A stretch of 64,000 bases of DNA, taken from NCBI GenBank assembly GCA_965220745.1, contig CBDCQT010000012.1, forward strand, positions 640,001-704,000, read 5' to 3'. Shown piece by piece: positions 57,320-57,448 of this stretch. Position 1 is the stretch's first letter. The number at the start of each line of letters is the position of its first letter. The notes under the pieces are model-generated. The model saw only the letters and a program-made list of their open reading frames with translations. It ran no database searches and was not told the origin of the DNA. The position numbers were made by a program, and so were the translations under genes. Origin of the DNA: Alphaproteobacteria bacterium (GTDB lineage Bacteria; Pseudomonadota; Alphaproteobacteria; UBA828).

Positions 57320-57448
57320 CTAGCAACAGAACTCGCCGTTATCGCCGCACGCTACGTAGCCTTGGGGACAAGCGAGGGCAGCGCTCGGCACCCACGTGAC
57401 TCCCACAATTGCCGCTGTTAGAAGTGCTATCGCGAGCCAAGCTCTCAT
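57320..57448 (-). CDS. Small secreted Cys-rich peptide (42 aa; not in ORF track)
   Basis: Hand translation MRAWLAIALLTAAIVGVTWVPSAALA-CPQGYVACGDNGEFCC*; AGGAGG RBS at 57459-57454, 5 nt from ATG; Sec signal with A-L-A cleavage site. Confidence 0.8.
   Translation of the reverse strand: MRAWLAIALLTAAIVGVTWVPSAALACPQGYVACGDNGEFCC

Follow-up and report, generated by a model that had tools for sequence, protein, structure and literature searches.

The locus described here raises the question of whether an open reading frame (ORF) of only 42 codons encodes a secreted, cysteine-rich micropeptide and, if so, whether that peptide acts alone or together with a partner. It lies on a stretch of 64,000 nucleotides from Alphaproteobacteria bacterium (UBA828; GenBank assembly GCA_965220745.1, contig CBDCQT010000012.1, positions 640,001 to 704,000), referred to below as the window, and positions are counted from its first letter. 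A first-pass annotation had proposed a stand-alone exported peptide, released by signal peptidase alone. The explanation that we put forward, which we regard as evenly poised between right and wrong, is that the locus specifies a disulfide-stapled bioactive peptide and, in the next gene, a lipoprotein dedicated to binding it for immunity or retention.

The micropeptide gene, its family and its predicted processing

The gene and its parts are placed as follows.

57320..57448, minus strand: micropeptide gene, 42 codons plus TAG, kept in a related locus of a second genome (L001:5797-5925), with five homologous protein clusters of 40-44 residues
57459-57454, minus strand: Shine-Dalgarno sequence AGGAGG, with a 5-nt spacer before the ATG, identical in L001
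57371..57448, minus strand: predicted signal peptide, residues 1-26, with Arg2 in the n-region, a hydrophobic core and A-L-A at 24-26
57323..57370, minus strand: predicted mature peptide, residues 27-42, C-x6-C-x6-CC, acidic, with eight invariant residues

The ORF runs on the minus strand from an ATG at 57448-57446 through 42 codons to a TAG at 57322-57320, and its product is MRAWLAIALLTAAIVGVTWVPSAALACPQGYVACGDNGEFCC. The features first ascribed to it, namely the AGGAGG ribosome-binding site (RBS), the arginine-containing n-region, the hydrophobic core, A-L-A and the C-x6-C-x6-CC pattern, are all present. In a mechanical ORF list the frame extends upstream to a TTG at 57484, giving 54 residues; in L001, a stop codon stands immediately 5′ of the ATG, and we therefore take the ATG to be the start. 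The window holds 46 AGGAGG sites, only three of which have an ATG 4-10 nt downstream, and these belong to a 683-residue gene, a six-codon frame and the micropeptide ORF. Because such sites are few and homologues exist, the ORF is more than a product of chance and, judged by its sequence, it is a genuine gene. That it had been left unannotated is indirectly supported: the window and L001 peptides are absent from a collection of 5.8 billion proteins in which the neighbouring lipoprotein is present (P0002), so that the gene callers seem to have overlooked the micropeptide gene in both genomes.

An exhaustive phmmer search of 1.84 billion representative proteins, with the single peptide as query and E ≤ 0.001 as threshold, returned four proteins, three of which are homologues of 40-42 residues: P0009 (E 3.7e-12, 67% identity to the window micropeptide), P0011 (E 4.8e-5) and P0012 (E 2.0e-4). 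The fourth, P0010, a 545-residue repeat protein matched in seven weak stretches, was treated as spurious and left unused. A profile built from the first members added P0013 (E 1.5e-10) and P0014 (E 1.8e-8), neither of which had been used in building it. A word-index protein search with the single peptide gave no match, and the homologues came to light only by exhaustive phmmer and profile searching. The first-pass annotation had made its case depend on homologues with conserved cysteine spacing; in the alignment of seven family members (window, L001, P0009 and P0011-P0014), the four-cysteine spacing is kept in every one. Eleven alignment columns are invariant, comprising M1, A24 and A26 in the signal part and C27, P28, G30, Y31, C34, G35, C41 and C42 in the mature part, and amino acid sequence is conserved down to 44-49% identity among homologues. 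Between the window and L001, the gene differs by five synonymous and two non-synonymous changes, the latter conservative V to A substitutions in the signal part, and the ratio of non-synonymous to synonymous rates (dN/dS) is 0.12 on very small counts; the predicted mature peptide is 100% identical.

The family could not be tied to any described one. Neither Pfam nor NCBIfam contains a family for the micropeptide; there were only sub-threshold matches to the hydrophobic stretch, the only Pfam match at E ≤ 0.1 being GhoT_OrtT with 14.7 bits against a cut-off of 22.1. A profile search of the PDB with the peptide family gave nothing above noise, the sub-threshold matches being Sushi/CCP-like ‘C..GY.L.G.....C’ hairpins (E 0.017) that hint at shape rather than homology, and Foldseek found no match in the PDB for the peptide model. 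Searches of plasmids and phages by tblastn gave nothing at E ≤ 10, the core strings of the mature peptide had no match in the literature, and PADLOC, PHROGs and NCBIfam held nothing usable for the peptide-lipoprotein pair. The protein atlas placed the micropeptide only in unnamed clusters (best score 0.81), and no paralogue was present in the window or in loci L001-L006. The micropeptide thus appears to represent a new, rare and uncharacterised small-protein family.

The assignment to Sec and signal peptidase I was made by rule and by conservation, the features sought being a basic n-region, a hydrophobic (h-) region 10-15 residues long, and small side chains at −3 and −1. All seven members show these features, and each has one K/R within its first five residues. 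The h-region is hydrophobic and varies freely, A24 and A26 are invariant (7/7), position −3 is Ala throughout, position −2 is L, H, Y or F, and in P0014 an Asp stands between A-x-A and the first cysteine. This conservation pattern, which upholds the Sec signal first recognised in the window peptide alone, fits cleavage by signal peptidase I after Ala26 rather than a lipobox. We infer cleavage at this point because A-x-A is invariant, the h-region is variable, and a lipobox and an uncleaved anchor are both unlikely.

Sec would thus export the 42-residue precursor, signal peptidase I would cut it after Ala26, and an acidic peptide of 16 residues would be released into the periplasm. In the other family members the predicted mature length is 16-21 residues. 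The predicted mature peptides are acidic in all seven, with net charges of −1.3 to −3.3 (−2.3 in the window), which argues against a cationic membrane-active peptide. AlphaFold2 (AF2), run on the seven-row alignment, gave a mean predicted local distance difference test (pLDDT) of 77, with a signal helix at residues 3-18 and strands at 32-33 and 40-41 on either side of a GDNG turn. The four invariant cysteines would be oxidised in the periplasm to two disulfides, which may staple a β-hairpin around this turn, most simply with C34-C41 as a cross-strand bond and C27-C42 closing the ends. The computed monoisotopic mass of the 16-mer is 1664.57 Da when reduced and 1660.54 Da with two disulfides.

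Predicted binding to the lipoprotein encoded downstream

The micropeptide gene is the first and a lipoprotein gene the second of two genes on the same strand, 75 nt apart, and L001 has the same arrangement.

56300..57600, no strand assigned: low-GC island of ~1.3 kb that holds only the micropeptide and lipoprotein genes, at the same site in L001
57245..57319, minus strand: 75-nt spacer with a GC-rich 6-bp inverted repeat (57260-57265 / 57281-57286) and the lipoprotein RBS
56462..57244, minus strand: lipoprotein gene, 260 residues, lipobox L-A-G-C with Cys23, predicted partner of the peptide
56768..56821, minus strand: lipoprotein helix 142-159, one half of the predicted binding site, with I146, L149, V158 and R159 invariant in the close family
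56465..56545, minus strand: lipoprotein C-terminal tail, residues 234-260, ending in PKCPQL, subfamily-specific and part of the predicted site

In windows of 200 nt, GC content is 44-62% inside the island against 65-78% in its flanks; it is 59.7% for the micropeptide ORF and 48.4% for the lipoprotein ORF, compared with 66.7% for the whole window. We propose that the pair is a horizontally acquired, low-GC, two-gene cassette. The lipoprotein has only six close homologues, none with a Pfam domain, and the lipobox residues G22 and C23 are invariant in its family. It matches no family in Pfam, NCBIfam or PADLOC, its best PHROGs match reaches only E 0.1, and profile searches of the PDB gave either no match or nothing beyond designed helical proteins, with E values from 0.04 upwards. 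Likewise, no sequence match linked it to LanI or to another known immunity or defence lipoprotein family. The atlas leads for this protein, Trypco2 (0.86) and Bact_GSDM (0.84, 13% of cluster members), fell below the lead threshold, Pfam disagreed with them, and they were set aside.

A complex between lipoprotein residues 24-260 and the whole peptide precursor was predicted from alignments of our own in three runs, with three controls. The median complex score was 0.61 (runs 0.62, 0.42 and 0.61), and the best of the three controls scored 0.00. A mark of 0.61 is reached by 116 of 157 solved complexes and by 2 of 215 mismatched pairs, counts to be taken as rough because the alignments were our own. 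The runs share at least 86% of their contacts, with a partner pLDDT of at least 59. The peptide is contacted at residues 23-28, 32-36 and 38-42, in its mature part as opposed to the signal helix, and the lipoprotein at residues 142-159 (the helix), 235-241 and 247-254. The tightest pairs join lipoprotein residues 235-238 to peptide residues 39-42, a strand addition. According to this model, the mature peptide would dock on the lipoprotein by adding its strand E39-C42 to the tail at L235-N238 and packing on helix 142-159. The model supports, and does not show, such binding. Being predicted to bind, the peptide may be kept in a complex instead of being set free. Of the stand-alone released peptide first proposed, the export signal therefore holds; solitary action sits less well with a gene that heads a two-gene cassette and whose product is predicted to be lipoprotein-bound, and most likely, by this model, the peptide does not act alone. 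An observation of a different kind concerns one end of each chain: the mature peptide starts with C-P-Q (57323-57370) and the lipoprotein ends in an invariant K-C-P-Q-L (56465-56482), which may be coincidence.

Distant relatives of the lipoprotein, found by tblastn on four Rhizobiaceae plasmids, provide a comparison (21-26% identity, pairwise BLASTP E 2e-11).

L003:3920-4588, L004:297-965, L005:396-1076 and L006:3468-4151: distant, tail-less lipoprotein homologues on Sinorhizobium and Rhizobium plasmids

In each of the four, the sequence stops just short of residue 234, so that the 27-residue tail is missing, and Cys169 is absent as well. The tail and Cys169 are both present in the four close-family proteins aligned (window, L001, P0007 and P0008), and Cys73 and Cys154 are invariant in all eight lipoproteins. 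Among these proteins, the tail, Cys169 and Cys257 travel together, and the co-occurrence of the two cysteines suggests a disulfide that pins the tail. The loci were searched for the peptide with the family profile against every stop-to-stop frame: it was found at both tail-bearing loci examined (window and L001, E 3e-24) and at none of the four tail-less plasmid loci (0/4, best E 1.2). A Pseudomonadales locus (L002), recovered through a match of 32 residues, was discarded, as it contains no relative of either the lipoprotein or the micropeptide.

Three of the four tail-less homologues lie directly beside one or two genes for GH25 muramidases (lysozymes), and the two GH25 translations inspected, at L003 and L004, have signal-peptide-like N-termini. 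This layout resembles effector-immunity operons, and for this reason an immunity-like role is suggested for the binder, which by analogy could serve self-protection or retention of the peptide; it is the weakest step of our explanation. Seen separately, the tail-less lipoproteins could be a muramidase-inhibitor or immunity family for which Pfam has no model. Just downstream of the homologue on L006, a Rhizobium lusitanum plasmid, are a ‘caspase family protein’ gene and an adjoining gene for a hypothetical protein of 265 residues (5223-7001, minus strand); the weak atlas lead to gasdermin (0.84) concerns the lipoprotein, and a link is unsupported by Pfam.

The lipoprotein gene also stands out by its divergence. 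The window and L001 share 93% nucleotide identity over 10 kb, and 93-100% in the flanks of the island; the lipoprotein gene (56462-57244 against L001:6001-6777) varies between 64 and 94% in 100-nt windows. The proteins are 73% identical, with a dS of 0.44 and a dN of 0.16, compared with a dS of 0.11-0.27 for three neighbouring genes, and the differences are concentrated at residues about 100-230. The pattern suggests allele exchange or diversifying pressure and, because both dS and dN are raised, allele replacement rather than simple positive selection.

Several points weigh against our explanation. Translation, cleavage, disulfide formation and binding are each inferred from sequence or predicted by modelling. 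In the complex runs, the lipoprotein has a pLDDT of only 65-67, the lipoprotein modelled alone by AF2 from seven sequences has a pLDDT of 29.8 and no fold, and it was the whole precursor that was docked, not the 16-mer. Mean identity is 0.714 at the interface and 0.604 over the rest of the lipoprotein, a difference that is not significant (it is matched by 1806 of 20000 random residue sets and by 67 of 236 circular shifts), and in two distant members the interface is the less conserved part, at 0.357 against 0.451. The co-occurrence of tail and peptide covers only the window, L001 and the four plasmid loci; the window and L001 being close relatives (93% nucleotide identity), the two positive loci amount effectively to one independent observation. 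As to function, the window and L001 share one and the same mature peptide although 27% of lipoprotein residues differ between them, whereas a toxin and its immunity protein would be expected to co-vary; antibacterial peptides are not typically acidic 16-mers; and the 17 neighbouring proteins scanned (about 49-64 kb) include none that would carry the peptide across the outer membrane. These three points are why the assignment of a role is the least secure part.

Alternative explanations and known systems

The most serious competitor, which we judge to be rather unlikely, is a free-standing peptide that is exported, cleaved and oxidised and acts alone as a signal, an enzyme inhibitor or a thiol or metal ligand, with the lipoprotein merely co-transferred. 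Four invariant cysteines, a C-terminal CC and a negative charge in all seven members would be well matched to metal or redox chemistry, members of the wider lipoprotein family occur without the peptide at all four plasmid loci, the interface is not significantly more conserved than the rest of the lipoprotein, and a complex score is a prediction, not a measurement. It must be set against these points that the pair scored 0.61 where three controls gave 0.00, that, among the loci examined, only those with the peptide have the lipoprotein tail, which makes up half of the predicted site, and that the two-gene island layout is kept in L001. Moreover, oxidation in the periplasm normally leaves no free thiols for metal binding. 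We consider it very improbable that the product is instead the precursor of a ribosomally synthesised and post-translationally modified peptide (RiPP), with maturases encoded elsewhere and its cysteines converted, for example, to thio-oxazoles or thioethers rather than disulfides. The precursor is indeed small and cysteine-rich with a conserved core, and bufferins are RiPP precursors that bear signal peptides; yet the island holds two genes only, and the leader is an ordinary Sec signal without a recognisable recognition sequence. Among the 17 neighbours there is no radical-SAM, MNIO/DUF692, YcaO, LanM-type or peptidase-exporter gene, and none for a RiPP maturase or dedicated peptide exporter within about 6 kb on either side, which bears out the earlier remark that no RiPP-modifying enzymes are adjacent. 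A class II microcin or double-glycine bacteriocin was rejected, the leader being a Sec signal that ends in A-x-A and no peptidase-containing ATP-binding cassette (ABC) exporter being adjacent; such ABC genes as lie in the vicinity are all of the uptake type, encoding permeases that accompany a phosphonate-type binding protein.

Other readings concern how the product is anchored or whether it matters at all. The slimmest chance of any falls to a tiny lipoprotein, in which signal peptidase II would cut before Cys27, lipidated as residue +1, to leave a 16-residue lipopeptide with three free cysteines. A cysteine directly follows the signal peptide in six of the seven members, and A-A-L-A-C agrees with the PROSITE lipoprotein pattern, a permissive one; the usual lipobox, [LVI][ASTVI][GAS]C with its cysteine at +1, is not present, given Ala at −3 in all seven, L, H, Y or F at −2 and the Asp of P0014 at −1, and the genuine lipoprotein encoded by the neighbouring gene shows the canonical L-A-G-C. 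Scarcely more probable is a regulatory upstream ORF or leader peptide, whose translation would control the lipoprotein gene through a hairpin in the GC-rich spacer. Such a role would account for a strong RBS on a short ORF directly upstream of that gene and for a conserved spacer (equal in length to that of L001, with two substitutions) containing an inverted repeat, but not for amino acid conservation down to 44-49% identity, invariant Cys, Pro, Gly and Tyr residues and signal-peptide architecture. The whole peptide transcript folds no better than shuffled sequences (z 0.86) and Rfam has no match in 56000-58300, and an RNA element was rejected on these results. An uncleaved small membrane protein, anchored N-in/C-out with its cysteine-rich end in the periplasm and modulating a membrane protein as MgrB does PhoQ, is held at a low probability, if a somewhat higher one than the RiPP. 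The invariance of A24 and A26, with small or helix-breaking residues at −4 to −6 in all seven members while the helix itself varies freely, speaks against it, as nothing would oblige a permanent anchor to keep a site for signal peptidase I. In its favour are the 42-residue precursor with a single hydrophobic helix (3-18), the size of MgrB, described as a membrane protein of 47 residues (10.1101/438515), and a survey of small proteins in which transmembrane families (1,295) far outnumber secreted ones (35), by its reported totals (10.1101/494179).

We return to the explanation preferred here, a stapled peptide with a lipoprotein binder, for which described systems offer partial parallels. The closest in biogenesis, as outlined in one account (PMC6356903), are the heat-stable enterotoxins of Escherichia coli, STa (18-19 residues, three disulfides) and STb (48 residues, two disulfides), which carry a Sec signal, are cleaved in the periplasm and receive their disulfides from DsbA; they too are short cysteine-rich peptides made by a Gram-negative bacterium without RiPP enzymes. 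The likeness is one of biogenesis only. There is no sequence relation, the Pfam scan of the micropeptide contained no enterotoxin family, and the window peptide has no pro-region, has its four cysteines in another pattern, is acidic and has a lipoprotein gene as partner. Nothing at this locus points to TolC-type export or to an animal target, and the host is an environmental alphaproteobacterium. Membership of the heat-stable enterotoxins was accordingly rejected, with no profile match and four cysteines in 16 residues against six in the STa core or a 48-residue STb.

A parallel for the binder is NisI, a lipoprotein that, by the description in PMC4828448, binds nisin without modifying it and whose C-terminal domain and final 22 residues are important for this binding. 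Both are lipoproteins for a small cross-linked peptide of the same cluster, with the last 27 residues forming part of the predicted site in the present case. NisI, by contrast, comes from a Gram-positive bacterium, where its gene is part of a large cluster that also includes modification, transport and regulatory genes; the searches brought out no similarity in sequence between the two lipoproteins, the window peptide would be unmodified and Sec-dependent, and binding is here only predicted. Periplasmic effectors of type VI and type IV secretion systems (T6SS and T4SS) are paired bicistronically with lipoprotein immunity proteins, as in the examples given in PMC9860674 and PMC10933484. A bicistronic layout that would join a product acting in the periplasm to a lipoprotein binder is common to those pairs and to this locus, as is, by analogy, the position of tail-less homologues beside GH25 genes at three of four plasmid loci. 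It is from this likeness of layout that an immunity function of the lipoprotein family is suggested. The differences are that the partner here would be a 16-residue Sec-exported peptide and not a machine-delivered enzyme, and that no T6SS or T4SS genes occur in the window regions examined. Lastly, a survey of proteins of up to 50 residues reports 4,539 families, of which 1,295 are predicted to be transmembrane and 35 (0.7%) secreted (Sberro et al., 10.1101/494179). The micropeptide family resembles these families, set beside them by description, in being conserved, no longer than 50 residues, without known domain and missed by gene callers; it differs in bearing a signal peptide, which would place it in an uncommon subclass (35 of 4,539).

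A further step, distinctly unlikely in our view, would be to see in the locus a minimal Gram-negative antagonism cassette, in which an unmodified, Sec-exported 16-mer with two disulfides is toxic or inhibitory, the lipoprotein sequesters it through its tail, and the lipoprotein scaffold has switched from a GH25 enzyme to a micropeptide partner.

Surroundings and significance of the cassette

57449..57718, no strand assigned: divergent intergenic region between the micropeptide gene and a gene resembling the small subunit of N,N-dimethylformamidase (DMFase), 78-94% identical to L001

Compared with L001, this region carries a 9-nt indel just upstream of the micropeptide RBS. A sigma-70 promoter scan of the locus, including this intergenic region, returned no site. 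No terminator-like site lies between the two genes on their strand; the sole such site, on the opposite strand inside the lipoprotein gene, is within chance expectation. The inverted repeat of the spacer has no U-tract and may be a processing or stability element.

The 17 scanned neighbours match only MltA, LutABC, Smr, DUF1232, DMFase-like, SecB and ABC uptake families, or nothing. MltA, LutA/B/C, Smr and DUF1232 flank the island on one side; on the other is a divergent DMFase-like small/large/small cluster with the phosphonate-type binding protein and ABC permeases. The DMFase-like cluster (57719-60996) comprises a small subunit-like gene (142 residues from the start in L001), a large-subunit gene matching Pfam DMFA2_C (E 5.5e-94) and, at 60610-60996, another ORF that resembles a small subunit; in the mechanical ORF list, its ORFs of 225 and 809 residues have 5′ ends that are over-extended relative to L001. 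The same list contains long ORFs antisense to real genes, among them 50951-54769 on the minus strand (1272 residues, opposite LutA/LutB), the usual artefact of DNA with about 70% GC.

Proteins of up to 50 residues that bear a signal peptide are rare among the small-protein families of the survey cited above (10.1101/494179). Should the peptide prove antagonistic or inhibitory, it would be an unusually simple bioactive peptide of a Gram-negative bacterium, requiring no RiPP enzymes; and if the antagonism cassette were real, the lipoprotein would be a reusable immunity scaffold, paired elsewhere, on Rhizobiaceae plasmids, with secreted GH25 muramidases. If the predicted complex holds, the locus would offer a compact, synthesisable peptide of 1.66 kDa with a specific partner, and thus a tractable model of micropeptide binding and control in the periplasm, as well as a first functional handle on a lipoprotein family found beside muramidase genes on rhizobial plasmids.

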